From positions 1-31,384 of IMG/VR virus record IMGVR_UViG_3300036783_000060: a DNA stretch of 31,384 bases. One strand, given 5' to 3'. This DNA comes from a virus. Taxonomy: Duplodnaviria > Caudoviricetes. Below are positions 4,673-29,321 of this stretch, piece after piece; position 1 is the stretch's first letter; the number at the start of each line of letters is the position of its first letter. A program made the position numbers and the translations under genes. Below the pieces are notes generated by a model, which was not told the DNA's origin, searched no databases, and was given only the letters and a program-made list of their open reading frames with translations.

Positions 4673-5121
4673 TACTCGCTATCTCCACCAGCCTGCTTAG
4701 CTTTAATTGCATCACGAACACGGATGCGGAAATCGCCAACCTTCTCTTGCGGATCCTGTTTCAGCTCCAGCTCTTCGGCTTCAATCAGCGTTGCCAACTG
4801 CACGGCGGTGAGCTTGGCGAGATCGACCTCATCATTGCCAATTTTCACGACGAAACTGTTTTCAGCTGCCAATGCGGCTAATCGCGCTTGTTCCAGACGA
4901 TCAGCTTCTGCCTGATTTTCTGCGGCGTTAGCCTTCGTTTTCATCACGCTTTCGAGGAAATCCGCTTTTACGAATACCGTAGGGTAATCAAGCAACCGAT
5001 GTGCAATAGCTGACTCGACATCAACAGGGGTAAAACGCGGGAACACCAGACGGCTGCCGGTGATCGTGTCGCGCTTTTTGTCTTTTGGCCCGATATAGGC
5101 AACTGCGATAGTTTGGGTCAT
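4672..5121 (-). CDS. Phage virion morphogenesis protein (933W-like late gene)
   Basis: 149-aa ORF with SD GGAG, YIGPK...DTITGS motif, located downstream of the capsid gene. Confidence 0.65.
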   Translation of the reverse strand: MTQTIAVAYIGPKDKKRDTITGSRLVFPRFTPVDVESAIAHRLLDYPTVFVKADFLESVMKTKANAAENQAEADRLEQARLAALAAENSFVVKIGNDEVDLAKLTAVQLATLIEAEELELKQDPQEKVGDFRIRVRDAIKAKQAGGDSE

Positions 5122-5185
5122 TGGAACGCTCCAATAAAAAAGGCCCGCACTTGGCGAGCCTCTTGGGGTTACGGGGATTAGCGGA

Positions 5186-16385: not shown

Positions 16386-16436
16386 TACTGGTTATTTATA
16401 CAGTATAATTATGGGTAGAATAATTTAAGTTTGCAA
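16386..16436 (-). promoter_or_regulatory. SOS promoter with LexA box
   Basis: TACTG-gttatttata-CAGTA (16386-16405, CTG-N10-CAG) just downstream of TTGCAA-N17-CATAAT. Confidence 0.9.
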
Positions 16437-17367: not shown

Positions 17368-17744
17368 GCTGACGCCCTCCCACTTACACTGGCCAGAGCC
17401 TGATCAAACATTTTGTGCACGTGGCAGAACCGCAGCTCCACTGGATGAAAATGCCAGAGAGTTTTATCAGGCGTGCCGGTCTCGCTGTTCGAATGGAAAT
17501 TAATCTCTGCAAGTTCCATGTACCGGGCAGTTGCACTGATTAATTTGTACCGGGTGCCGTGCCCCTGCCCCTTCACCACAATTACAACGTTTGGTGATCT
17601 GACCATCGACTTCAATCGAGGCATGAGTGACGTTCTTGTCATGCCATTGCCTGGGTAAGTCTCTTGAGCCAATTCAACAATTTCCTTGGTACTCAATTCT
17701 TGCCCTAGGATCAGCTCTATGAGTTGCTTGGTTGTAATTCTCAT
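17364..17744 (-). CDS. Winged-helix-like hypothetical protein
   Basis: 126 aa downstream of the helicase loader; start lies in the GGAGCATAACCAATG motif. Confidence 0.7.
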   Translation of the reverse strand: MRITTKQLIELILGQELSTKEIVELAQETYPGNGMTRTSLMPRLKSMVRSPNVVIVVKGQGHGTRYKLISATARYMELAEINFHSNSETGTPDKTLWHFHPVELRFCHVHKMFDQALASVSGRASA

Positions 17745-17758
17745 TGGTTATGCTCCGA

Positions 17759-18514: not shown

Positions 18515-19474
18515 TCAAGAAAAGCCTGCTGGTTTTTCGTCGTAGTTGCCTGATGGCTCAAAACCGCCCCGCCGCTGGCGCCCCGTCTTACCAGCCTGTG
18601 GTAAGCCAGTGGACTGACTAGCAAGATGCCGGGCAAATTTTTGTTCCCACTGTACCTGGTGGAATGCCTTGCCCTCGGCTTTCCAGTAATCCCGAAATGC
18701 CACCAGTTCGTGCGGTTCCCACCCAGTAGCAGGCAGAATCACGTTCCACAGAGCTGCGCGCTGGCGGAAATCCGGAGACGGTTGCCAGTCTGTAGTCATC
18801 GTGGATTTCAAGGCAGGATTATTCGACCAGTAATCCTCGACAGGTTCTGGTGGTGATTCAACCGGTGGAAATCCATCTTCACGCCCGCTCGCGTTATATG
18901 TGGGGTTTAAGATCTGTTTACTGCTTACTGCTTTCTGGAAAGGTCTTGGCAAAGACTTAGCCTTATCCCTAGCCAGAGGATTAGCCAAAGTGAAAGCCTT
19001 ATCGAAAGCCAAGCCCATAGGTTCAGAAACGCCGTGGGACGCGGCTCTTAGCGATTCCAACGCCTCATACTTAAGGTTGCATTCCGGCAGTAATTCGAAT
19101 GCCCGCACCCATGATTTAATAACGTTTACCGATGTTGGCGGGTTGTGCTTTGCTGCATTCGGCAACCAAAAAACTCGGGCTTGGGTGTCAGCTTTCACCA
19201 TACCTAGAGATAAGGCTTCGCCTAAGGCTAAGTCGAAGGCTTCGACATCCCACCCCAATTCCTCGGACAAAGCAGCTCGTCCCGCCTTAAAGAGACCAGG
19301 TATAATCCCGGTGAAAGGCCCTGTAAGTAGGTATACGAACAAGCTCTGCCCACTAGGAGGCAAAGGGGATAACGCCCTGAAACTCGGGTCATCCCACATC
19401 GTTATTTTCACCTTTCGGTAAGGCTCGTTATTAGCCTTACTCTTAGCCAAAGGTTTTGGCATACTATTAGCCAT
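18515..19474 (-). CDS. Replication initiator (O-like) with C-terminal DnaT-like domain
   Basis: MWDDPSFRALS N-terminus; DWQPSPDF...F..YW.AEGK..HQVQWEQKFAR; upstream of the DnaC-like gene. Confidence 0.85.
   Translation of the reverse strand: MANSMPKPLAKSKANNEPYRKVKITMWDDPSFRALSPLPPSGQSLFVYLLTGPFTGIIPGLFKAGRAALSEELGWDVEAFDLALGEALSLGMVKADTQARVFWLPNAAKHNPPTSVNVIKSWVRAFELLPECNLKYEALESLRAASHGVSEPMGLAFDKAFTLANPLARDKAKSLPRPFQKAVSSKQILNPTYNASGREDGFPPVESPPEPVEDYWSNNPALKSTMTTDWQPSPDFRQRAALWNVILPATGWEPHELVAFRDYWKAEGKAFHQVQWEQKFARHLASQSTGLPQAGKTGRQRRGGFEPSGNYDEKPAGFS
18957..19012. repeat. 12-bp-period iteron-like array (probable phage ori)
   Basis: AGCC core at 18959, 18971, 18983, 18995, 19007. Confidence 0.65.
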
Positions 19475-19537
19475 AAATCCGCCTTAAAATCGGCTCATTG
19501 ATGCATCTTTTGAAATGCGTAACTACAAGGAATTGCA

Positions 19538-19732
19538 ATGAAAACCTTTAACCATGTGCTGCCTCATCGCGATGAAATTACCATCGAGCTGTTAGAAGGA
19601 AATGTTGTTCAACTCACTCAAGAAAATCCTTCTGCAAACCAGCCCGATCAACTCAGAATCCATGCTGACGATATTCCAATGCTGATCGACACACTTACTC
19701 GCGCATTAAATGTCGCTAAAGCAGACTTTTAA
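19538..19732 (+). CDS. Small hypothetical protein opposing the pR operon
   Basis: 64 aa, SD AAGGA, fills the gap between two minus-strand genes. Confidence 0.55.
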   Translation: MKTFNHVLPHRDEITIELLEGNVVQLTQENPSANQPDQLRIHADDIPMLIDTLTRALNVAKADF

Positions 19733-19750
19733 TAGAGCACCTGCATAACA

Positions 19751-19987
19751 TCACCGGCGCCCCATACGGCGCCCTGGTACGTGCGGCCGGTCTGGCTTTC
19801 CCTTCACTCGCTTGTAGTGCTTGGCATGGTTCTTTGCCCAAACTAACAACTCGGCAAGGCTAATCCGCGGGTTAGTTGCCTTGTGGTCAATAGCAGCCAT
19901 AGCAACAGATGTGGCTGTAGCCTCATCCAACTTTGCCTCTCGCAACTGAGCGGTAATTTGTTTTAAAAGAAAATCTTGATTGGTCAT
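19751..19987 (-). CDS. Hypothetical protein (78 aa)
   Basis: SD GGAG and ATG at 19987 (MTNQDFLLKQ). Confidence 0.7.
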   Translation of the reverse strand: MTNQDFLLKQITAQLREAKLDEATATSVAMAAIDHKATNPRISLAELLVWAKNHAKHYKRVKGKPDRPHVPGRRMGRR

Positions 19988-20006
19988 TGGTTTATGCTCC
20001 GGTCTA

Positions 20007-20576
20007 CTAAAAACAGCCGCTGAATACCGCCGCGGCACTGGCCATAACTGCAGCCCACCGATCCGGCGGCGCCAGTCTTACCAGCGATTCGATACCCTCA
20101 CGAATTTCTTTCTCGAGCTCGCGCAACGGCGCGCCGAGTAATGCTGCCTGCTTGGCGTCCGCGCATTCTTTGATGGCATCGGCTACCAGCTCAAACTTGG
20201 TTTTCCCCTGCTTTAATCCGTATTTTCTGGCGATCTCGATCGGCATCACGTCGGCGATCACCGGCGCCAGCTGCCGGACATAATCGGCGTATTTCTCCGT
20301 ACGGTTCGGGTTGTCCAGCCAGCGGAATATGTTCTGGCGGTTGTTACGTTCGATGTCGCCAAGCTGTAAGCCCTTCCCCCCGCGCCGAAACCACTCATCA
20401 GTGATCAGCTTCGCAATGGTGTCCTGCGCCTTGCCTGGTAACGTGCTTTGCCACTCTTCGACGGCCAAGCGAACCGTCTCGGGTTTAACGCTGGAACGGC
20501 GGCGCATGGAAGATTGATTTTCTGAACTCAGGCGCTGGCCACCGCCCCTGATAGCATTCTGAAATGCGAATGACAT
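20007..20576 (-). CDS. CII-like regulator (YdaT family)
   Basis: Directly after cro; N.QNIFRWLD and IKECADAKQAALLGAP..EL.KEIREGI motifs. Confidence 0.8.
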   Translation of the reverse strand: MSFAFQNAIRGGGQRLSSENQSSMRRRSSVKPETVRLAVEEWQSTLPGKAQDTIAKLITDEWFRRGGKGLQLGDIERNNRQNIFRWLDNPNRTEKYADYVRQLAPVIADVMPIEIARKYGLKQGKTKFELVADAIKECADAKQAALLGAPLRELEKEIREGIESLVRLAPPDRWAAVMASAAAVFSGCF

Positions 20577-20578
20577 GG

Positions 20579-20809
20579 TTAATCCTCCGCCTGCTGGGAC
20601 AACCCGTCGGAGGGGTTAGGGTAAAGATCGGGGCGTAGTTCGTGGGGTGTCACGCCGGTAGCTTGGTGGATAGGTAGAACGCGATGGGCGGGAACAATTC
20701 CCTTACCATCATTTTTCCACAAGCTAATTGCCATCCGTGAAATACCAAGCATTGAGCTAAGGTTCTTTGCTGAACCAGCAATCTCAATTGCCTTATCAAG
20801 TGCTGTCAT
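20579..20809 (-). CDS. Cro-like repressor (YdaS/Cro family)
   Basis: SD AGGAG; ALDKAIEIAGS..LS..LGIS..AIS.W...TGVTPHELRPDLYP. Confidence 0.88.
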   Translation of the reverse strand: MTALDKAIEIAGSAKNLSSMLGISRMAISLWKNDGKGIVPAHRVLPIHQATGVTPHELRPDLYPNPSDGLSQQAED

Positions 20810-20836
20810 AATTGCTCTCCTGTTATTGAGAATAAA

Positions 20837-20911
20837 AGTAAAGCAATTATTTACCACAAGGTCAAGCAAAAGGTGCCTTGTTAAAGTAAAGCAAACATTT
20901 ACAATGCCAAC
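20837..20911. promoter_or_regulatory. oR region: pR, pRM and two 17-bp operators
   Basis: GTAAAGCAATTATTTAC (20838-54) and GTAAAGCAAACATTTAC (20886-902). pR is TTGACC-N17-TTTACT (minus). pRM is TTGTTA-N16-TACAAT, 6 nt before the cI ATG. Confidence 0.8.
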
Positions 20912-21292
20912 ATGACTACAGAAGAATCGCAACCAAGCCTGATTTCTAGGCTCGAAACATTGAATAAAAAAGGGCTTTCCAAAGCGGAAATGGCTCGGGT
21001 TGCTAACGTCAGTAAGCAAGCTGTTACGGGATGGTTTAAGACCGGAACAATGAGCAAAAAATCGGCACTTGCCATTGCTGATGCAGCTGGCGTATCCCTC
21101 ACGTGGCTTCTTGGTGAAGAAGTCGAAGAAGGTAGTGGCCTTAAACCTAAAGAGTCCGCAATGCTCGAGCTATTCCGCCAACTACCGGAGGCCGAACAAG
21201 AGCGCATGATCGACCTTTTCCAGGTGCGGCTTAAAGAGATCGACGACTACGTTGAGAAGTACTTGAGGGGCCGGTATAAGCCAACGGAGTAG
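20912..21292 (+). CDS. CI-like repressor, HTH only (no S24 peptidase domain)
   Basis: SKAEMARVANVSKQAVTGWF HTH, divergent from cro, 126 aa. Confidence 0.88.
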   Translation: MTTEESQPSLISRLETLNKKGLSKAEMARVANVSKQAVTGWFKTGTMSKKSALAIADAAGVSLTWLLGEEVEEGSGLKPKESAMLELFRQLPEAEQERMIDLFQVRLKEIDDYVEKYLRGRYKPTE

Positions 21293-21360
21293 TTTTTAAC
21301 TTTCGGACTGTTTAACGCAATTTTTAAAGCATGCACTCCAGAAAAAATGTAAGGAAAACA

Positions 21361-21708
21361 ATGCTAACATCCGATGGATTCAAAGATTATTTAGCAAGAA
21401 TGAATATTTCCCCAACATGTTTGTGTTGCGGTAATAATCAATGGAGCGCATATGCTGGAGTTGCATCAGATAACATCATCGCCGATGGAGATGTAAGTTA
21501 TACCCCTGTTAATGCTCTTGGTCTTGTGGCTATGACAACCAATCAAGCAGGCCACATAGGCTATACACGGGATGGCGGAATAGCCATTGCATTTCTTACA
21601 TGTAATGGCTGTGGTCATATGATCCCATTTCACTATCATTATGTTGCAAGTCGCTATGCTTTTTTGATTAGTAAGAAAAATACTAAGGGCGGCGAACCTG
21701 ATGAATAG
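21361..21708 (+). CDS. Zn-ribbon accessory protein in the immunity region
   Basis: CLCC...CNGC; AT-rich; SD AAGGA before ATG 21361. Confidence 0.7.
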   Translation: MLTSDGFKDYLARMNISPTCLCCGNNQWSAYAGVASDNIIADGDVSYTPVNALGLVAMTTNQAGHIGYTRDGGIAIAFLTCNGCGHMIPFHYHYVASRYAFLISKKNTKGGEPDE

Positions 21709-22144
21709 TAAAGTGACCCGTGCTAACATTACAGTTGTAAATGAAAATTATGTTCCTGATTTTAGCGAGTACGAAGCCCGTAACTCTCATAGTGGAGGCG
21801 ATGGCGGAGGTGGTAACATGACGGAGCGATTAGAACGTTTAGAAAAGAAAGTAGATTCAATGGAGTCTACTTTGTCGCGCCTGAACGAAACAATGCTTCG
21901 GCTTGACTCCAAATTTGATCGCGTTGATGACAGATTTGGTTCAATCGAAAAAAGCTTTGGTGAAGTTGACAAGCGACTTGAGTCTGCGATGAAAGGAATT
22001 GGCGAAAAAATCGAAGTGGCAACAAAGCTCACCGAAGCAAGTACCAAAACTGCAGTTGCAGAAGCTAAGCTTGCGATAATCCTAGCGGTGCCTGCTATCA
22101 TAGGGGCTATATATACAGCTTACCGCCTACTTTCAAAACAGTAA
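21701..22144 (+). CDS. Coiled-coil protein with C-terminal TM helix
   Basis: Heptad repeats, then LAIILAVPAIIGAIYTAY; overlaps the upstream gene. Confidence 0.75.
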   Translation: MNSKVTRANITVVNENYVPDFSEYEARNSHSGGDGGGGNMTERLERLEKKVDSMESTLSRLNETMLRLDSKFDRVDDRFGSIEKSFGEVDKRLESAMKGIGEKIEVATKLTEASTKTAVAEAKLAIILAVPAIIGAIYTAYRLLSKQ

Positions 22145-22195
22145 CTTTTATCCGGCCACCTTCCGGACCAGTCGATCATAATGCACCTCTTTTCT

Positions 22196-22220
22196 AACCG
22201 GCCACTGTGCCGGTTTTTTT
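22196..22220 (+). terminator. Terminator of the cI operon (timm-like)
   Basis: AACCGGC-cactgt-GCCGGTT-TTTTT. Confidence 0.8.
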
Positions 22221-22236
22221 GTGCCCAGCCCCGCAA

Positions 22237-22300
22237 GTAAACCCATGCTTTACCATTTTTGACATTATTACTTGACTGCAAAGTAAAGAACATGTTTACT
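22237..22300 (+). promoter_or_regulatory. oL/pL
   Basis: Operators GTAAACCCATGCTTTAC (22237-53) and GTAAAGAACATGTTTAC (22283-99); TTGACT-N17-TTTACT. Confidence 0.8.
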
Positions 22301-22497
22301 TAGACCCATCGCAGCAACGAGTCATCAAGGCAGGATGCCCACGAAGTAGCCGCCACCGGCGCACGAAAAGGTGGATGAGATGACAGAAGCAGACGCGCAG
22401 CAGGTACAAACGTTCTGACAATTCGGGAAAGACCGGAGGACCGCCGGAAAGACGGCGAGCATAACCAATGTTCAACCACGCGATTGAGGGTTAACCA

Positions 22498-22695
22498 ATG
22501 ATCAGCACAGCAATTCCTCACAGCGGTAAGGCCACCAGCTTCCGCAACAAGCGTACCGGCGCGGCATGGGTGGCGCATTACGATATACACGGCCAGGTAT
22601 ATCGCTTTGAGCCAACCGGCAATCTTCGTGCAATCAAGGCGCCGTTTGAATCTCGCAGTATTCCGCCATATTTCGAGCCAGCCGGTACGCACTAA
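22498..22695 (+). CDS. Early-left hypothetical protein
   Basis: SD GAGGG, 65 aa, first sizable pL gene. Confidence 0.65.
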   Translation: MISTAIPHSGKATSFRNKRTGAAWVAHYDIHGQVYRFEPTGNLRAIKAPFESRSIPPYFEPAGTH

Positions 22696-22774
22696 AACGT
22701 AGCAATTAAATAAGTAATCCACTGACTGATTAATTCAGTCACGGGATCCCATTACCTAAAATCGGAGCATAACC

Positions 22775-23077
22775 ATGATCAAGACTGTAGAAATTAAATT
22801 AAACCTCTTACACAGCAATATCGTTGAAGTATTAAGTGAAGGTGAAACCATTGGCTTTATCGTTAATACAGATAACAAAGAAAAACCTCATTCTCTGGTA
22901 ACCCCAACAGGGAGTGATGCCGGTGATTTCGATTGTCCTAAATGTGCCATTGATGCCGCAGTCCGCAAGCACTTTAACGTAGGCAGCGAGTACGCCACCG
23001 AGTTCGAAGTCAAGGGCCGCCCGTCACCGAAAAAGCTGCTCCTGCTGGCGTTACTGGCGATGCTGGCCGACGAATAG
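22775..23077 (+). CDS. Early-left hypothetical protein (CPKC, hydrophobic tail)
   Basis: SD GGAG, 100 aa. Confidence 0.7.
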   Translation: MIKTVEIKLNLLHSNIVEVLSEGETIGFIVNTDNKEKPHSLVTPTGSDAGDFDCPKCAIDAAVRKHFNVGSEYATEFEVKGRPSPKKLLLLALLAMLADE

Positions 23078-23094
23078 TTGCTGTGTGTAGTCTT

Positions 23095-23120
23095 CCCCGC
23101 CGTCGCTGGCGGGGTTTTTT
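23095..23120 (+). terminator. tL-like terminator
   Basis: CCCCGCC-gtcgct-GGCGGGG-TTTTTT. Confidence 0.8.
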
Positions 23121-23208
23121 AGAGTTATTGAAATGTGTCCAGCGTTTCCCATCCGGGGCGTCAACTCGCCGGGCATATTTCAATATCAACAACCACGAGA
23201 GGTTAACA

Positions 23209-23436
23209 ATGGAGAAGATATTTTCCCCTGTCGCGGCACGAAAGGCACAAGAGGAATATTGCAAGAATAAACGCGTTCCTCATTTCGCGCCAAACGATGG
23301 GATTTGTTTTCGCTGTAAGAAAGATATTTATCAGCAGAATGGGTTACGTGGGTATGAAACCGGTATATCGCTCAATGAAGCAAATACCACGCACGTTATT
23401 TACTGCCCACACTGCAACCGCAGTTACTGCGATTAA
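23209..23436 (+). CDS. Small Zn-finger protein
   Basis: SD GAGG; PHFAP.DG.CFRC...CPHCNRSYCD. Confidence 0.75.
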   Translation: MEKIFSPVAARKAQEEYCKNKRVPHFAPNDGICFRCKKDIYQQNGLRGYETGISLNEANTTHVIYCPHCNRSYCD

Positions 23437-23441
23437 AACGT

Positions 23442-23561
23442 AAAAAGGCCCGCACAAGGCGGGCCAGTCTACCGGCTTAACGTCCCGGAGACGGGTTACC
23501 GGGGAACCACCCCCAATAACCGGAGCATAACCAATGACCAACCGAGGCGGGCCACTGATTG
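23442..23561 (-). ncRNA. Candidate antisense sRNA carrying the anti-RBS sequence UCAUUGGUUAUGCUCCGG
   Basis: GTGCAA-N17-TAGAAT (-10 at 23568-73), minus-polarity terminator GGCCCGC-cttgt-GCGGGCC-TTTTT, and a G-U-rich stem that folds only on the minus strand. Confidence 0.6.
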
Positions 23562-23597
23562 GCCTGCATTCTACCTAAGTTTAAGGAGAATTGCACA

Positions 23598-26500
23598 ATG
23601 CAAAACGTGTATGACTACCACCTAAAGGCAAAACAGAAATCAGGCAATGCGTCGCTTTTTATCTGGTTTGAAGCCAAAAACGATGCCAGGGCAAAACGTG
23701 ACCTCGAAAATTACATTGAGGATGCTGAAATTGATATGTCCGGCTACTTCAAGCCTGTTCGTACAAACCACCCTGTCGTTGATGATCTGCCACCGGAAGG
23801 TGAGTTCTGCGCAAAATGGTGTGAACGCAATGCACTGGACGACAATCTGTCATGGCAGAAAATTATTGCTCCAGCAGCCTCCGTCGAGACAGTACAGAAA
23901 GAACCAAAAGCTGCTGCTGAATACTTCGCGTCAAACCTCGATAAGCACACCGTGATCGCCGCCGCCTGGCTGTATGGTCGCGACTGTCTGAAACTGAGCG
24001 ATGATCAGTTAAAAGCCGCCAAAGCGCTTGTTATGGACGATGCTCAACGCTACCCGCAAAACGTAATTCTGGCGCTTACCAGTCTCAAACAGCACGAGTT
24101 CGTGTATCCAGAAATGCCGATCGTTGCGATAGCCGGCATGAAGGCCGTGTGGCCTCCGTTCGGGAAAGCGCCAGAGCTGGGCAAGCTGTGCCAGTTTGCG
24201 ACCGAATACCTTGATGCCAAGGACGAGCAGCGTGCAGACGTCATAACAAAGTGGACCACCGGTGGCGCCAAGCCAACAGAGCAAGTCGAGGAACAGCCAC
24301 GCACAGAGTCAGGTGCAATCCTCTCTAACGGTACCGAACCTGCCACCGGCACTCCTATCGACTCCCAGCAGATGCTTGAGACAGTGATCGGTTGCGCGCT
24401 GTACCCTTCTGATTTCGACATTTCCAACCCGCCGGGCTCCATCATCCGCGCAGTTACCGAAATGAAAAAGCGCAACGACAAAACGCTCAAGGCTTGGAAT
24501 GAACAGCTCAGCAATACGCCAGGTGTTTTGCAATTCTCCCGTGAAGCGATCGTTGCGCTAATCCGCGGTGCCGAGGAAAACCTCTATCTCACCCCCGGCG
24601 CGCTACGCAGCTACATCAACGCCAATCTGATCGAGGTCGACCCTAAGGCTGTGCAACAAGAACGGGAAACCGCGCAACAAAGTGGCGCTGACTTGCAACA
24701 AACCGCCTCAAATGAGGGTGAAAAAGAAGAAGTGGCGACCGTTGATACTACGGTTGTCGAGTTTGAAACCGAGCGCCGAGCATGGATCCGCAGCGAAGTT
24801 ATAGCGGCATTGAGCGGCGACACCGGCGTTATGGGTGAAGATGACGTTGCTGAGCTCATGGCTGTAATCGGCGAAGGTGTATCGCACACGTATATCGCGC
24901 GACTACTGGCCAAAGAGATTGAGCCGTGCGATCCGTTCAACCAACTGGCTGCAGATGAAATTCATCACCTTACCTGCGACGTGCTGGAAAACTGGGTAGA
25001 TGAAAAAGATCCGCGCATTGCTTTCATCAATGGGCGCGTTGAGTTCTACCTGAAAGAAGCGTGTATATCGCGAGAACAAGCCATCAGTGCTAGCCAGCAA
25101 GAAAACCCAGAGCCAGCACGGGCTGATGCTCCAAATAAGGGCGAAAAAACAGAAGTCGCCCAGCAGCATCAACCTGGCGAACTGCGCAGCATGGGCGGTG
25201 GCCATTTTGATGTATCCGCTCTGTTTGCCGAGTCACCATTGGCCAGTGTCATCGTTGATAAGCCAGCATCAACCGATTTGTCAGGTACAGAGGTGGCGCA
25301 AACCTGTCAGGTGCCATCAACACCGCCATACTTCGAACCTGGCCGTTATCACAACATCCCGAATGAGGTTTATCACTCAGCCAATGGCATTAGCAGCACA
25401 ATGGCTAAGGATGCGCGGATCAGCCTGATGTACTACCACGGCCGCCACGTCATCAAATCTATCAAGCGTGAACGCACCGACGCGCTGACATTCGGCTCGC
25501 TGGTTCACACTCTGGCTCTCGAGCCTGAAAAACTCGACGAAGAATTTAGCGTTGAACCGTTGCTCCCCGAGGGTGCATTCACTGATACAGCGTCAATGCG
25601 CGCGTTTATCGATAACCACAACAAGTCACTGCCAAAAATGACTGACGCCGACACGCTACGTTCAATGATCGAGAAGCACAACGCCACGCTTCCAAGCTCA
25701 CGAGCTTTAGGTGGCAACTACGAAGAAACCGCGCAATTTTATGTCTCGCTGCCGGTTGAGTTTCAAAGCCTAGCGACGGCTGAGCCTACGGCAGCAGCGA
25801 TGAAGGGCTGCATCAAGACGTACAACGCCACCCTGCCAGCACCGCTGAAAACTACCGGCAGCCGTGATGCCCTGCTTGAACAACTGGCGACCATCGAACC
25901 GGAGTTTGTCGAAAAAGAACGCGCGATCCCGGTGCCGCTTCCGGTTAGCGGCAGCAAAGAGGAAATGGCCGCACGTATCAAAACTGTATTACCCTCCGCG
26001 ATTTTTGCAGATGAGGTGATCAGCGAATGGTACAGCTCAAGCGCTGGAAAACAGCAAATCACGCAGCAACAAATGCAGTATGCGAAAGCCATTCAGCGTG
26101 CGCTTTTTACCCACCCGTCAGCAGGCCAAATGTTACAACACCCGCAGCGTGCAGTGGAGGTGAGCTATTTCGGTATTGATGAGGAAACCGGCCTTGACGT
26201 GCGAGTCCGTCCGGACCTTGAAATTGAAGCTGGCGGCCTGCGTATCGGCTTTGACCTGAAAACAGTCACGATGGGGAACGTAAAGCAAAGTGCCCTGCGT
26301 GCCAGGCTGCACCGCGAAATTATCGAGCGTGATTATCACCTGAGCGCAGGCATGTATTGCGACGTGGCCGCATTCGATCAGTTCTTCTGGATCTTCGTTA
26401 ATAAAGACGAGAACTACCACTGGATCGCCATCGTAGAAGCATCTGCGGACCTGCTGGAACTTGGCCGCCTTGAGTACCGTAAAACATTGCGGGATATCAA

Positions 26501-26606
26501 ACAGGCGCAGGATACCGGTATCTGGCCAGAGCCGATCACAGAAGAAATCGTGGACGACATTAACGACTTTGACCAGCGCCGCATGGAAGCGCTGCGCGTA
26601 GCTTAA
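23598..26606 (+). CDS. recE: RecE-like exonuclease VIII
   Basis: SD AAGGAG before ATG 23598. N-terminus resembles Rac RecE (YFKPVRTNHPVVDDLPPEG). C-terminal PD-(D/E)XK: YHSANGISST, RVRPD, DLKT. Confidence 0.88.
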   Translation: MQNVYDYHLKAKQKSGNASLFIWFEAKNDARAKRDLENYIEDAEIDMSGYFKPVRTNHPVVDDLPPEGEFCAKWCERNALDDNLSWQKIIAPAASVETVQKEPKAAAEYFASNLDKHTVIAAAWLYGRDCLKLSDDQLKAAKALVMDDAQRYPQNVILALTSLKQHEFVYPEMPIVAIAGMKAVWPPFGKAPELGKLCQFATEYLDAKDEQRADVITKWTTGGAKPTEQVEEQPRTESGAILSNGTEPATGTPIDSQQMLETVIGCALYPSDFDISNPPGSIIRAVTEMKKRNDKTLKAWNEQLSNTPGVLQFSREAIVALIRGAEENLYLTPGALRSYINANLIEVDPKAVQQERETAQQSGADLQQTASNEGEKEEVATVDTTVVEFETERRAWIRSEVIAALSGDTGVMGEDDVAELMAVIGEGVSHTYIARLLAKEIEPCDPFNQLAADEIHHLTCDVLENWVDEKDPRIAFINGRVEFYLKEACISREQAISASQQENPEPARADAPNKGEKTEVAQQHQPGELRSMGGGHFDVSALFAESPLASVIVDKPASTDLSGTEVAQTCQVPSTPPYFEPGRYHNIPNEVYHSANGISSTMAKDARISLMYYHGRHVIKSIKRERTDALTFGSLVHTLALEPEKLDEEFSVEPLLPEGAFTDTASMRAFIDNHNKSLPKMTDADTLRSMIEKHNATLPSSRALGGNYEETAQFYVSLPVEFQSLATAEPTAAAMKGCIKTYNATLPAPLKTTGSRDALLEQLATIEPEFVEKERAIPVPLPVSGSKEEMAARIKTVLPSAIFADEVISEWYSSSAGKQQITQQQMQYAKAIQRALFTHPSAGQMLQHPQRAVEVSYFGIDEETGLDVRVRPDLEIEAGGLRIGFDLKTVTMGNVKQSALRARLHREIIERDYHLSAGMYCDVAAFDQFFWIFVNKDENYHWIAIVEASADLLELGRLEYRKTLRDIKQAQDTGIWPEPITEEIVDDINDFDQRRMEALRVA

Positions 26607-26617
26607 GGAGCATACCA

Positions 26618-27739
26618 ATGAGCAACCAACTCGCACTGATTCAGAAAGATTTAGCAGCAGAGCTGGCACCGGCCAAGGAGATTTTGCCGAGCCATGTCAG
26701 CTTTGAGAAATTTACCAGCGCCGCGGCGGTGGCACTTGCCAACAATAGCGATTTATTGGGCGCCGACCGCCAAAGCGTTATTAATGCCCTTTCATCCTGC
26801 GCAAAAGACGGCCTGATCCCTGATAACCGGGAGGCAGCACTTGTCGTATACAAGACGAAAAATGCTAACGGCGAATGGGTAGCGAAAGCACAGTACCTAC
26901 CGATGATCGACGGTGTGATGAAGCGGGCGCGCCAGTCCGGTGAGGTAGCGGTGATCGCCGCACGTGCCTGGTACAAGAATGACCAATTTCGCGTCTGGAT
27001 GGACGAGGACGGCGAACATATTTTTTATGAGCCTAATCTCTTGAACCGAGGCGAATTACTCGGCGCCTTCGCCTACGCCAAGATGAAATCCGGTGAGCTT
27101 CAGTTCGAGGTGATGAACACTGACGATATTGAGAAGGTTCGGGCGGCCAGCAAAAACAGCGATCGCGGCCCTTGGGTGAACTGGTATGAATCAATGGCGC
27201 GTAAATCCGTCATGCATCGCCTGTGTCGCCGCTTGCCGAACAACTCCGAGATGATGGAAATGCTCGAGCGTGGTACCGAGATGGTGTGGCAAAAAGAAAG
27301 GGACGTCACCCCAGAAACCCGCGTTACTGCAGGCCAACTGATCGAGGCCGCCGAGCACACATCAGAACCGCCAGTTACCGACGTTGGCGCCCCTGAAAAA
27401 ATGGCATCTGATATCCGTGGCAGCATCGACAAGATCACCACCCCAGCGGAAGCAACAGCCCTCCGGGCATCAGTTGAAGAGTTGAAGACACAGTTGGGGA
27501 TCACGCTGTACACCGAATTGAAAAACAAAATCGTGAAGCAACACCACCGCCTCAACGCTATTTCGGCACTGGGTGCCTCGATCGATGCAGCCGGAGTGAA
27601 CGGCGGAACTTCACATCAAGAACGCGCCGAGCTGGAAGCCCTGCTCCGTCGTTCCGAACGCCTATTAAACGCAGATGAGGTTCAACGGTATCAACAGGCA
27701 ATAGCGGACCTGGCGCCACAGCCGGAGGCGGCATGTTGA
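26618..27739 (+). CDS. recT: RecT-family annealase with C-terminal extension
   Basis: GLIPDNREAALVVY, QYLPMIDG, GPWV.WYESMARKSV..RL...LP. Confidence 0.9.
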   Translation: MSNQLALIQKDLAAELAPAKEILPSHVSFEKFTSAAAVALANNSDLLGADRQSVINALSSCAKDGLIPDNREAALVVYKTKNANGEWVAKAQYLPMIDGVMKRARQSGEVAVIAARAWYKNDQFRVWMDEDGEHIFYEPNLLNRGELLGAFAYAKMKSGELQFEVMNTDDIEKVRAASKNSDRGPWVNWYESMARKSVMHRLCRRLPNNSEMMEMLERGTEMVWQKERDVTPETRVTAGQLIEAAEHTSEPPVTDVGAPEKMASDIRGSIDKITTPAEATALRASVEELKTQLGITLYTELKNKIVKQHHRLNAISALGASIDAAGVNGGTSHQERAELEALLRRSERLLNADEVQRYQQAIADLAPQPEAAC

Positions 27740-27918: not shown

Positions 27919-27988
27919 TTTTTGAAAATCAAAACACAACGCAGGCCACGGCTAAGATCGTGGCCGGTTGTGCGTAGGAGCATAACCA

Positions 27989-28264
27989 ATGACTAAAAAG
28001 CTGACGTTAGAAGAATGGTGTGATGAAACTTACTCAGGCAAGAAACCAACACTGCAAACATTATGGCGTTGGGCCAGAAATGGGAATTTTTATCCGCCAG
28101 CAGAAAAACACGGCAAACAGTACCGGCTGACACCAGGGACTATTTACATCAACCCCAATGATCTCACCCTGGGGAAAAAAATAAAGGAAGCGCAGAGCCC
28201 ACAACCGGCGAGGCAAGCGTTCATGGAAAAGGTGATCAATGACACGGCGAAGGGAGGGGTATGA
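27989..28264 (+). CDS. xis: Excisionase
   Basis: LTLEEW......PT.QTL.RWAR.G..YP..EKHGK.YR is lambda Xis-like; overlaps the int start. Confidence 0.9.
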   Translation: MTKKLTLEEWCDETYSGKKPTLQTLWRWARNGNFYPPAEKHGKQYRLTPGTIYINPNDLTLGKKIKEAQSPQPARQAFMEKVINDTAKGGV

Positions 28265-29321
28265 CATGCGGCTACCGAAAAACCTCACTTTTCGCCGCAA
28301 CAGAAACGCGTTTTATTGGCGTAATCCTGTCACAAAAAAGGAAATCTCTCTTGGGCAGATTGCGCGCCGTGACGCCATAGCTCAGGCGATCGAAGCCAAT
28401 CACTACATCGAACAGAATTACTCCCCTGTACTGCTGCTGGAGAAAATCAAAGGCAGCCACGAGTACACGCTAAACTCGTGGCTCGAGCGGTACGATGTAC
28501 TTTTCAAGCGCCGGAGTCTGGCCGAGAACACTTACAAGGTTCGCATAGGTCAGTTTGCCATTATCAGCGAAAAGTTAGGCGGCATGGTGCTATCAAAAAT
28601 CACGACTCGCCACGTCGCCGAGTTCTTAGAAATTTGGATTGCTCAGGATAAAAAAACAATGGCTGCAACTATGCGCTCCGTACTGTCTGACATATTTCGT
28701 GAAGCGATTGTGGAAGGTCATATCGAGAACAACCCCGTTACACCCACGCGAGCGGCAAAGGTGGTGGTGAAGCGCGAACGGCTAGAGTTGGCGCAATACA
28801 TGTCCATTCGTGAAACTGCTGCCACTATGCCGCCGTGGTTCGGCCTGGCGATGGATCTCGCACTGGTCACCGGGCAACGGCGCGAAGATTTGACGCAATT
28901 CCGATTCGAGCATGTCGTAAATGGGCGGCTACAGATCGAGCAAGGTAAAACAGGCGCCATGATCTCCCTTCCCCTTGATCTGGAACTGAAAGCGGTAAAC
29001 CTGCGTCTTGGCACCGTGATCGATCGTTGTCGGCTCGCCAGCAACACCGAATTTATGCTCAGTGCCGGAATCCGGAAAAACAGCCCGGACGGCTCTTTGC
29101 ACCCAGATGGATTAACGAAAAAGTTTGTTGCTACGCGAAAAGCATCGGAGTTGGTATTTGAGGAAAATCCGCCGACGTTCCACGAGATCAGGAGCCTGGC
29201 CGGACGGTTGTATGAGAAGGAAAAAGGAAAGGAATTTGCGCAGAAATTACTGGGGCATAAATCCGAAAAAATGACGGGTAAATACCTCGATACGAGGGGG
29301 AAAGAGTACGTAATGTTGTAA
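28239..29321 (+). CDS. int: Lambda-type tyrosine integrase
   Basis: Arm-binding N-terminus LPKNL..YWRNP; catalytic TGQRRED, KTG, HEIRS, LLGH, Y all present. Confidence 0.96.
   Translation: MTRRREGYDMRLPKNLTFRRNRNAFYWRNPVTKKEISLGQIARRDAIAQAIEANHYIEQNYSPVLLLEKIKGSHEYTLNSWLERYDVLFKRRSLAENTYKVRIGQFAIISEKLGGMVLSKITTRHVAEFLEIWIAQDKKTMAATMRSVLSDIFREAIVEGHIENNPVTPTRAAKVVVKRERLELAQYMSIRETAATMPPWFGLAMDLALVTGQRREDLTQFRFEHVVNGRLQIEQGKTGAMISLPLDLELKAVNLRLGTVIDRCRLASNTEFMLSAGIRKNSPDGSLHPDGLTKKFVATRKASELVFEENPPTFHEIRSLAGRLYEKEKGKEFAQKLLGHKSEKMTGKYLDTRGKEYVML

Follow-up and report, generated by a model that had tools for sequence, protein, structure and literature searches.

A conserved, predicted antisense sRNA gene in front of recE of a lambdoid prophage and its predicted pairing with the start boxes of six early genes

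The prophage and its early region

The window, that is, the whole stretch of viral DNA analysed here with a length of 31,384 nucleotides, is a Gifsy/Rac-like lambdoid prophage. Its minus strand carries cro-like and cII-like genes together with replication, dinI, Q, lysis, and tail genes. CI, encoded at 20912, is short and has no peptidase domain, and the plus strand after it features recE (ATG 23598), recT (26618), xis (27989), and int (28239). SraC/SdsR adjoins the prophage. Among named genomes, the closest relatives of its RecE are from Serratia, and it is by these relatives only that the host would be placed there. The landmarks around the element described below are the following:

23598..26606, plus strand: recE (exonuclease VIII), serving as landmark, with no box at its start
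23209..23436, plus strand: putative zinc-ribbon gene of 75 aa, just past the terminator of the predicted sRNA
22234..22299, plus strand: two operator-like repeats at the inferred pL, found by repeat search, function inferred
20835-20902: two more operator-like repeats

None of the operator-like repeats found lies near the predicted sRNA promoter (23560-23600). A LexA-box-like palindrome is located at 16388-16411, just upstream of the dinI-like gene. On the minus strand, 10361-11424 matches the terminase large subunit over 214 aa only, with tail genes within ~500 bases, and the ORFs tested include no head genes; the prophage may have suffered a deletion here, or the record a mis-assembly.

The predicted sRNA gene

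Directly in front of recE and antisense to it lies a conserved sRNA gene, the expression and effect of which are predicted. Its parts are as follows:

23442..23560, minus strand: predicted sRNA of ~118 nt, IsrB-like, with +1 inferred 7 nt past the -10 box
23591..23596, minus strand: weak -35-like hexamer GTGCAA, overlapping the recE ribosome-binding region, not conserved
23568..23573, minus strand: -10 box TAGAAT
23529..23560, minus strand: hairpin 1, the 3' arm of which is the near-invariant anti-AUG half of the seed
23522..23528, minus strand: single-stranded linker AUGCUCC, predicted toehold, complementary to the Shine-Dalgarno (SD) half of the box
23494..23521, minus strand: hairpin 2, with three pairs changed on both sides
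23467..23492, minus strand: hairpin 3, of ambiguous fold
23442..23465, minus strand: intrinsic terminator, stem (23465-23447) and U-run

The promoter had been given in the preliminary description as GTGCAA-N17-TAGAAT, and the two hexamers are indeed present at 23596-23591 and 23573-23568 with 17 nt between them. The -35 had been called weak; the hexamer overlaps the recE ribosome-binding site and varies in relatives. The -10 box of relatives reads TACAAT, TAAGAT, TATACT, or TATAAT; it was counted in 166 of 170 loci by a criterion too loose to discriminate, and a promoter pattern scan of the window did not return the predicted sRNA promoter. The inferred +1 coincides with the first base of hairpin 1. 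At the other end, the U-run follows the terminator stem on the minus strand alone, as had been described; terminators were counted in 122 of 170 loci by a scan that overlooked visible ones, and neither of these two counts is relied on here.

Fold of the predicted sRNA

The minus strand folds with -62.1 kcal/mol (z -4.37, unmatched by any of 200 shuffles), and for the plus strand of the same element z is -3.03. The favoured fold consists, from 5' to 3', of hairpin 1, the free linker AUGCUCC, hairpin 2, the less certain hairpin 3, and the terminator. In 17 relatives, it is 98% paired—a value reached by 4 of 500 shuffles—and 3 of its 32 pairs are changed on both sides, all three in hairpin 2. The linker has an unpaired probability of 0.9-1.0, and a linker of 7-8 nt occurs in each of the 17 folds. 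The 5' arm of hairpin 1 varies with G-U pairs keeping the pairing, which marks the minus strand as the folded one; the near invariance of the 3' arm indicates a constraint beyond the stem. The first bases of hairpin 2 lengthen the pairing with some targets, and hairpin 3 is missing from shorter relatives and from IsrB.

A different first stem, long and enclosing a loop of 14 nt, had been drawn in the preliminary description. It amounts to -36.3 kcal/mol compared with -60.0 kcal/mol for the free fold, is 95% paired in the 17 relatives, beats none of 500 shuffles, and has 0 of 14 pairs changed on both sides; being ~24 kcal/mol costlier and lacking co-variation support, it was rejected. The second hairpin of that description, our hairpin 3, appears in the single-sequence fold, but the consensus has a competing pairing. 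Likewise, the loop display of the anti-RBS motif holds for the 7-nt anti-SD part, which is predicted to be single-stranded; the remainder lies in hairpin arms, with half of the seed predicted to be paired within hairpin 1, which counts against the proposed pairing with targets.

The loop of hairpin 2 (23494-23521, minus strand) keeps UGGU, and UUUGGUC in most other lineages and in IsrB. It is complementary to the ACCA/GACCAA part of the box and may provide a further point of contact or else be bound by a protein.

Relation to IsrB and expression

No described family had been recognised for this element; however, IsrB of Salmonella has the same place and orientation. An Rfam search matched isrB (RF01386) exactly at the element with 21 bits (E 1.7; gathering threshold 35 bits), the six true IsrB members scoring 49.7-99.3 bits. 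Since the score is below the Rfam cut-off, the element is IsrB-like and not a filed IsrB member. The same scan places isrB at the corresponding site of Gifsy-1 and Gifsy-2. A model of window-like RNAs (R1) found the IsrB site in 4 of 6 Rfam-positive loci with 13.3-22.1 bits, missing both Gifsy copies, and gave up to 21.8 bits for unrelated terminator regions of the window. The Rfam look-alikes Trp_leader and asX2 were discarded as terminator-driven chance matches.

IsrB-1 and IsrB-2 (of Salmonella Gifsy-2 and Gifsy-1, respectively) and the predicted sRNA are all antisense and directly in front of recE (sbcA), between it and the upstream gene. They share a TAGAAT box 20-24 nt from the recE start, a GCCC terminator, a 5' hairpin, and a hairpin with a UGGU-containing loop. 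IsrB is 88-94 nt long, compared with 118 nt and an extra hairpin for the predicted sRNA. Furthermore, IsrB lacks the anti-SD/anti-AUG seed and the Gifsy starts lack the box, whereas the predicted sRNA and its window have both.

According to excerpts of the respective reports, IsrB was detected by Northern blot and primer extension as species of 88 and 94 nt induced in starvation (PMC2330248); is expressed in strain 4/74, with Gifsy-2 lytic genes silent in D23580 and agreeing patterns in 4/74 and D23580 (10.1101/787010); counts among the prophage RNAs that associate with ProQ and probably function in lysogeny (PMC5391140); and was 2-fold enriched with Hfq on 4 reads (PMC2515195). The literature searched, comprising abstracts and articles in part (among them PMC13397905), names neither a target of IsrB nor an antisense regulon of shared start sites.

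The search of RNA-seq data yielded no strand-specific reads of the predicted sRNA; in 22 runs, a fraction of at most 0.17 of the words searched was present. The contigs of a relative from three RNA runs of one study all end at ~23545-23554, near the predicted 5' end, and a probable DNA run in the same comparison continues past this point; as these are unstranded contigs of 1.3-1.6 kb from a single study, the ends are not counted as evidence for the sRNA.

Start-codon boxes in the window

The core of the predicted sRNA is complementary to a start box common to six early phage genes, and a further copy of the box lies opposite the sRNA itself:

27977..27993, plus strand: start box of xis (ATG 27989), predicted target, 17 nt complementarity
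26607..26627, plus strand: start box of recT (ATG 26618), predicted target, complementarity with one gap
22763..22778, plus strand: start box of gene 22775 (100 aa), predicted target, 13 nt complementarity
22457..22494, plus strand: box of leader ORF 22468 (8 codons), predicted target, 14 nt complementarity
19980..20003, minus strand: start box of gene 19987, predicted target, 12+11 nt around one bulged A
17741..17757, minus strand: start box of gene 17744, predicted target, 17 nt complementarity
23534..23578, plus strand: cis copy of the box with a 14-codon ORF, stop 19 nt before recE

All six complementarities claimed earlier are thus present. Gene 19987 (78 aa) lies between cII and the replication gene; gene 17744 (126 aa) comes after the dnaC-like gene and has a weak Lpa-like match; family searches found none for the products of genes 19987 and 22775. 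The stop of leader ORF 22468 abuts the start of gene 22498, and the recT box is confined to the window's own lineage. Upstream, the inferred pL leader (22306-22470, plus strand) forms a series of hairpins, the last of which immediately precedes the boxed leader ORF; this leader may serve in antitermination or attenuation.

When 1028 ATG contexts were ranked by duplex energy against the 30-nt seed, the cis copy took rank 1 and the six named starts ranks 2-7, followed by start 5121 at rank 8 and start 22498 at rank 10. A score of at least 15 of 20 was reached by 5 of 1023 contexts, compared with a mean of 0.1 and a maximum of 1 for 60 shuffled seeds in which GGAG and ATG were kept. The predicted net co-folding energy of the six targets ranges from -14.6 to -22.6 kcal/mol; among 23 other trans starts, 20 fall between -0.8 and -6.9 kcal/mol, the stronger ones being 22498 (-9.3), 5121 (-13.4), and int 28239 (-18.6 kcal/mol). 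The good values of int 28239 and of the late-region start 5121 fit poorly to a simple silencing of early genes. At the first in-frame ATG of int (28239; 28228-28244, plus strand), 12 nt can pair with the seed, three of them as G-U pairs, and a second ATG with a strong SD follows at 28266. The partial box at 5110-5130 (minus strand) opens a 149-aa late-region gene (phrog_482), which comes after a terminator sharing 14 nt with that of the predicted sRNA.

Co-variation of seed and boxes in relatives

Relatives were collected by RecE-anchored searches yielding 18 and 80 viral and 79 bacterial loci in partly overlapping sets, in addition to five named phages; a blastn search against phage records matched pAEv1818 only. 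A regular expression for the seed region matched 151 of the 170 loci with enough upstream DNA, leaving 19 unclassified. The Escherichia/Shigella Rac-type recE loci (L114-L121) have a different upstream sequence, in which the seed pattern is absent.

Seeds differ by lineage, with at least nine variants among the relatives, and the boxes of orthologous genes mostly follow the seed of their own phage—the outcome of a check that the preliminary description had called for. Among 69 hand-picked loci of the 151, scored with half credit for G-U, the mean top-3 score is highest with the own seed for 6 of the 7 groups that bear boxes; in the remaining case, the two seeds concerned are a single A apart. 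For the B and IsrB groups (25 loci), which have no SD/AUG seed, the mean is at most 0.25 sites whichever seed is used. True IsrB and the large B lineage thus have the RNA gene without matching boxes, so that the function proposed below is not that of the whole family.

Gene by gene, the box was present in 10 of 10 loci where gene 19987 was found and in 9 of 9 where gene 17744 was found, each with four seed types, and in 8 of 8 loci for gene 22775, two of them via G-U-compatible changes. The xis box follows its own seed in 7 of 11 loci: in xis proteins 79-80% identical to that of the window, the box switches from GGAGCATAACC to GAGGCATGACC along with the RNA; two xis genes 34-36% identical (L050 and L051) have the box of another lineage, and two more (L058 and L063) have none. 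The recT box occurs in 4 of the 12 loci shown, and gene 22498 follows only partly.

A covariance model built from 15 window-like RNAs matched in 5 of 151 genomes and led to two loci by way of the RNA instead of RecE, both with new seeds: L264 has 6 sites for its own seed, including xis, versus 2 for the window's seed, and L268 has 3 versus 0. Three RNA copies in one genome (G125) have 0, 1, and 1 own-seed sites. For seven of the eight new model matches listed, the -10 box reads TATAAT or TATACT, and the remaining one (L269) seems to be a chance match to a terminator alone. In L264 (genome G135) and L268 (genome G023), the RNA sits one gene further upstream, and an ORF of 684-707 aa ~340 nt downstream also bears the box. 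The three G125 copies (L265, L266, and L267) have diverged, two with single seed changes and few or no matching starts, and possibly represent decaying prophages.

The sequence, conservation, complementarity, and co-variation of the sRNA and the boxes are thus observed features of these loci, the loci being related and the co-variation counts not independent events. A wobble-bias test was set aside since the SD constraint and relatedness confound it; for the core of 122 unique targets, A/C changes were G-U compatible in 24 of 37 cases, and incompatible G/T transitions numbered 4 of 21. Moreover, co-variation is not unique to RNA pairing, since gene conversion or a protein evolving along with the boxes would lead to it too.

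Gene conversion would make the boxes a dispersed repeat, homogenised by recombination between strong starts at module-exchange junctions with no regulator involved. Some matches reach 21-28 nt, extending into coding sequence, and the phage encodes RecET, as such an origin would have it, and copies outside the RNA gene that read ATA resemble copying from it. Starts have, however, also adopted GAGAC and GAGTTTT, which are poor SD sequences, and the copies are limited to the start codons of early genes and are gone from lineages without the seed in their RNA. To recombine efficiently, most matches are too short and too broken up, and we consider a repeat of this kind very improbable.

The cis copy, ATA copies, and the zinc-ribbon gene

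The plus-strand copy at 23522 has an SD, an AUG, and a frame of 14 codons and could thus be just one more start. Its stop lies 18-19 nt before recE in most window-type loci; elsewhere, the ORF is in frame with recE, overlaps recE, or is 4-26 codons long. Neither frame nor peptide is kept family-wide, and a conserved peptide or a device for coupling to recE was rejected on these grounds. ATA takes the place of ATG in the RNA's own copy for 58 of the 61 pattern matches (from 59 viral loci), as well as for L062 and L268; among the other box copies listed, 143 of 151 have ATG. An ATA own copy facing ATG targets is tolerated as the U of the RNA still pairs with the G of the target. This loss of the AUG from the RNA's copy in two lineages tends to favour pairing by an RNA over a plain repeated ribosome-binding site, the ATA loci being close kin that stand for some two or three events. 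ATA is also seen in eight of the listed copies that lie away from the matched site, two of these being the RNA copy via a second match. Some copies are therefore not start sites, which keeps both gene conversion and transcription termination alive as rivals.

For the latter, pairing between RNA and box would act by termination or mRNA decay at leader ORFs, or else time the lytic shut-off of early genes. Many boxes open leader ORFs of 6-15 codons, some between cII and the replication gene; copies reading ATA are unable to start translation; and the full-length cis duplex (-92.5 kcal/mol) could act directly on the pL transcript. A precedent is P4 CI RNA, which terminates transcription by pairing according to excerpts of PMC4825925. 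Against this stand the anchoring of the box on SD and AUG, with the ATG kept in those 143 copies, and the targets in the window, most of which are full-length genes; furthermore, IsrB is present in uninduced lysogens, as stated in part of 10.1101/787010, which speaks against termination or a lytic timer. Taken together, we regard such an action as unlikely.

The box could also be the site of a phage protein, on the pattern of the start-associated sequences discussed below, with the copy at 23522 as a further site or plus-strand decoy and the antisense RNA acting in cis only. A candidate reader is the 75-aa zinc-ribbon-like gene, which adjoins the element in 38 of 39 window-type loci; the cis copy has SD, AUG, and an ORF, and a co-evolving protein would give co-variation too. 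Yet the gene is absent, as judged by tblastn, from 19 C-type loci, 2 P-type loci, and L004, all of which show box-seed matching; with 0 of 21 C- and P-type loci carrying it, it cannot be the general reader. In addition, the cis copy of two lineages lacks the AUG that the targets retain; in every seed type folded, the linker left unpaired is the part facing the SD half of the box; and an RNA could go through six or more concerted seed switches more readily than a protein could. A protein site thus appears unlikely.

Comparison with other phage RNAs and start-site repeats

P4 CI RNA, P1 C4 RNA, and the IsrK-C4-like module (CL00128) are structured phage antisense RNAs like the predicted sRNA. P4 CI and P1 C4 pair with more than one short site of early transcripts and thereby support immunity, as described in parts of PMC4825925 and PMC3632133. 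The predicted sRNA resembles them, at the level of sequence, in having several short complementary sites in early RNAs. However, C4/CI RNAs are processed from the strand of their target operon, and the sites on which they act lie in their own neighbourhood, whereas the predicted sRNA has a promoter box and a terminator of its own that face against the recE operon, with start codons in both early operons as its sites. The C4, c4-a1b1, and isrK models gave no match at gathering score in the window and none at E of at most 5 in 19000-24200; the same Rfam scan detects C4 in Gifsy-1.

P22 Sar, lambda OOP, and aQ are sRNAs with their own promoters opposite an early operon and block or destabilise phage mRNA, according to part of PMC12197685. 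Each of them has a single cis-overlapping target; the predicted sRNA has mostly trans targets with one common box, the ORF that it overlaps being a non-conserved one of 14 codons and six further sites lying elsewhere.

The start-associated sequence SAS of cluster K mycobacteriophages is a phage-specific 13-nt motif at many translation starts, for which excerpts of PMC3203893 consider an RNA or a protein as reader. Its host and sequence are unrelated, and no matching antisense RNA gene is named in these excerpts; the window prophage encodes a co-varying antisense RNA gene.

Proposed mode of action

The sRNA probably pairs with the six start boxes and would thereby block translation as a back-up to CI. 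A minus-strand RNA of ~120 nt silencing several genes had been claimed before; what stands of this is the co-varying shared start box, repression and its timing belonging to the model. We infer expression, repression, lysogeny timing, and release of the predicted sRNA as follows. Its own promoter, outside the control of CI, would keep up a steady supply of it in the lysogen, where IsrB is present as well. The free AUGCUCC linker is predicted to dock on the GGAGCAU half of the box, upon which pairing would open the weak G-U arm of hairpin 1 and spread across the AUG. Ribosomes would be shut out of xis, recT, 22775, 19987, 17744, and the short leader ORFs. The messages covered would be the leaky early ones, including the leader ORFs that head pL and that precede the replication genes, with polarity on the genes behind these ORFs. 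Upon induction, read-through from pL would yield a perfect full-length antisense copy and converge on the sRNA promoter; the sRNA would be overcome by this copy, whose titration of it would give a threshold response.

The wider proposal that the IsrB-like family is an RNA repressor with its own set of operators—seed-matched starts that define RNA immunity groups, with Gifsy IsrB as a derived member—is put forward tentatively, the odds being somewhat against it. If true, each lineage has rewritten the unrelated starts of early genes in both early operons to fit its seed, and Gifsy IsrB is the form that lost its box targets. A second layer of immunity would then silence excision and other early genes, both in the resident phage and in any incoming one that shares its box, to be turned off by its own antisense read-through upon induction. 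The phage antisense RNAs covered in part of PMC12197685 each act on a single phage gene or on genes of the host; an RNA that reads a co-evolving code of start sites shared across the early regulon would be a new design of lysogeny control, in phages the CI of which lacks the self-cleaving domain. It would also be the first concrete function proposed for the IsrB-like RNA before recE, present in 151 of 170 RecE-anchored loci. Lineage-specific cross-immunity would become predictable from sequence alone, the natural seed variants would be ready orthogonal RNA-target pairs, and the model suggests a possible explanation for the start-associated repeats of other phages.

A neighbouring RprA-like motif

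The terminator after gene 22775 (23077-23120, plus strand) starts with TTGCTGTGTGTAGTCT, which in RprA, a host sRNA, forms the 3' seed region. The Rfam RprA match at this site has 28.6 bits and is below the cut-off. Of 164 loci, 23 have the RprA-seed motif no more than 2.5 kb ahead of recE, and the RprA-like terminator may give rise to a 3'-derived RNA mimicking processed RprA.
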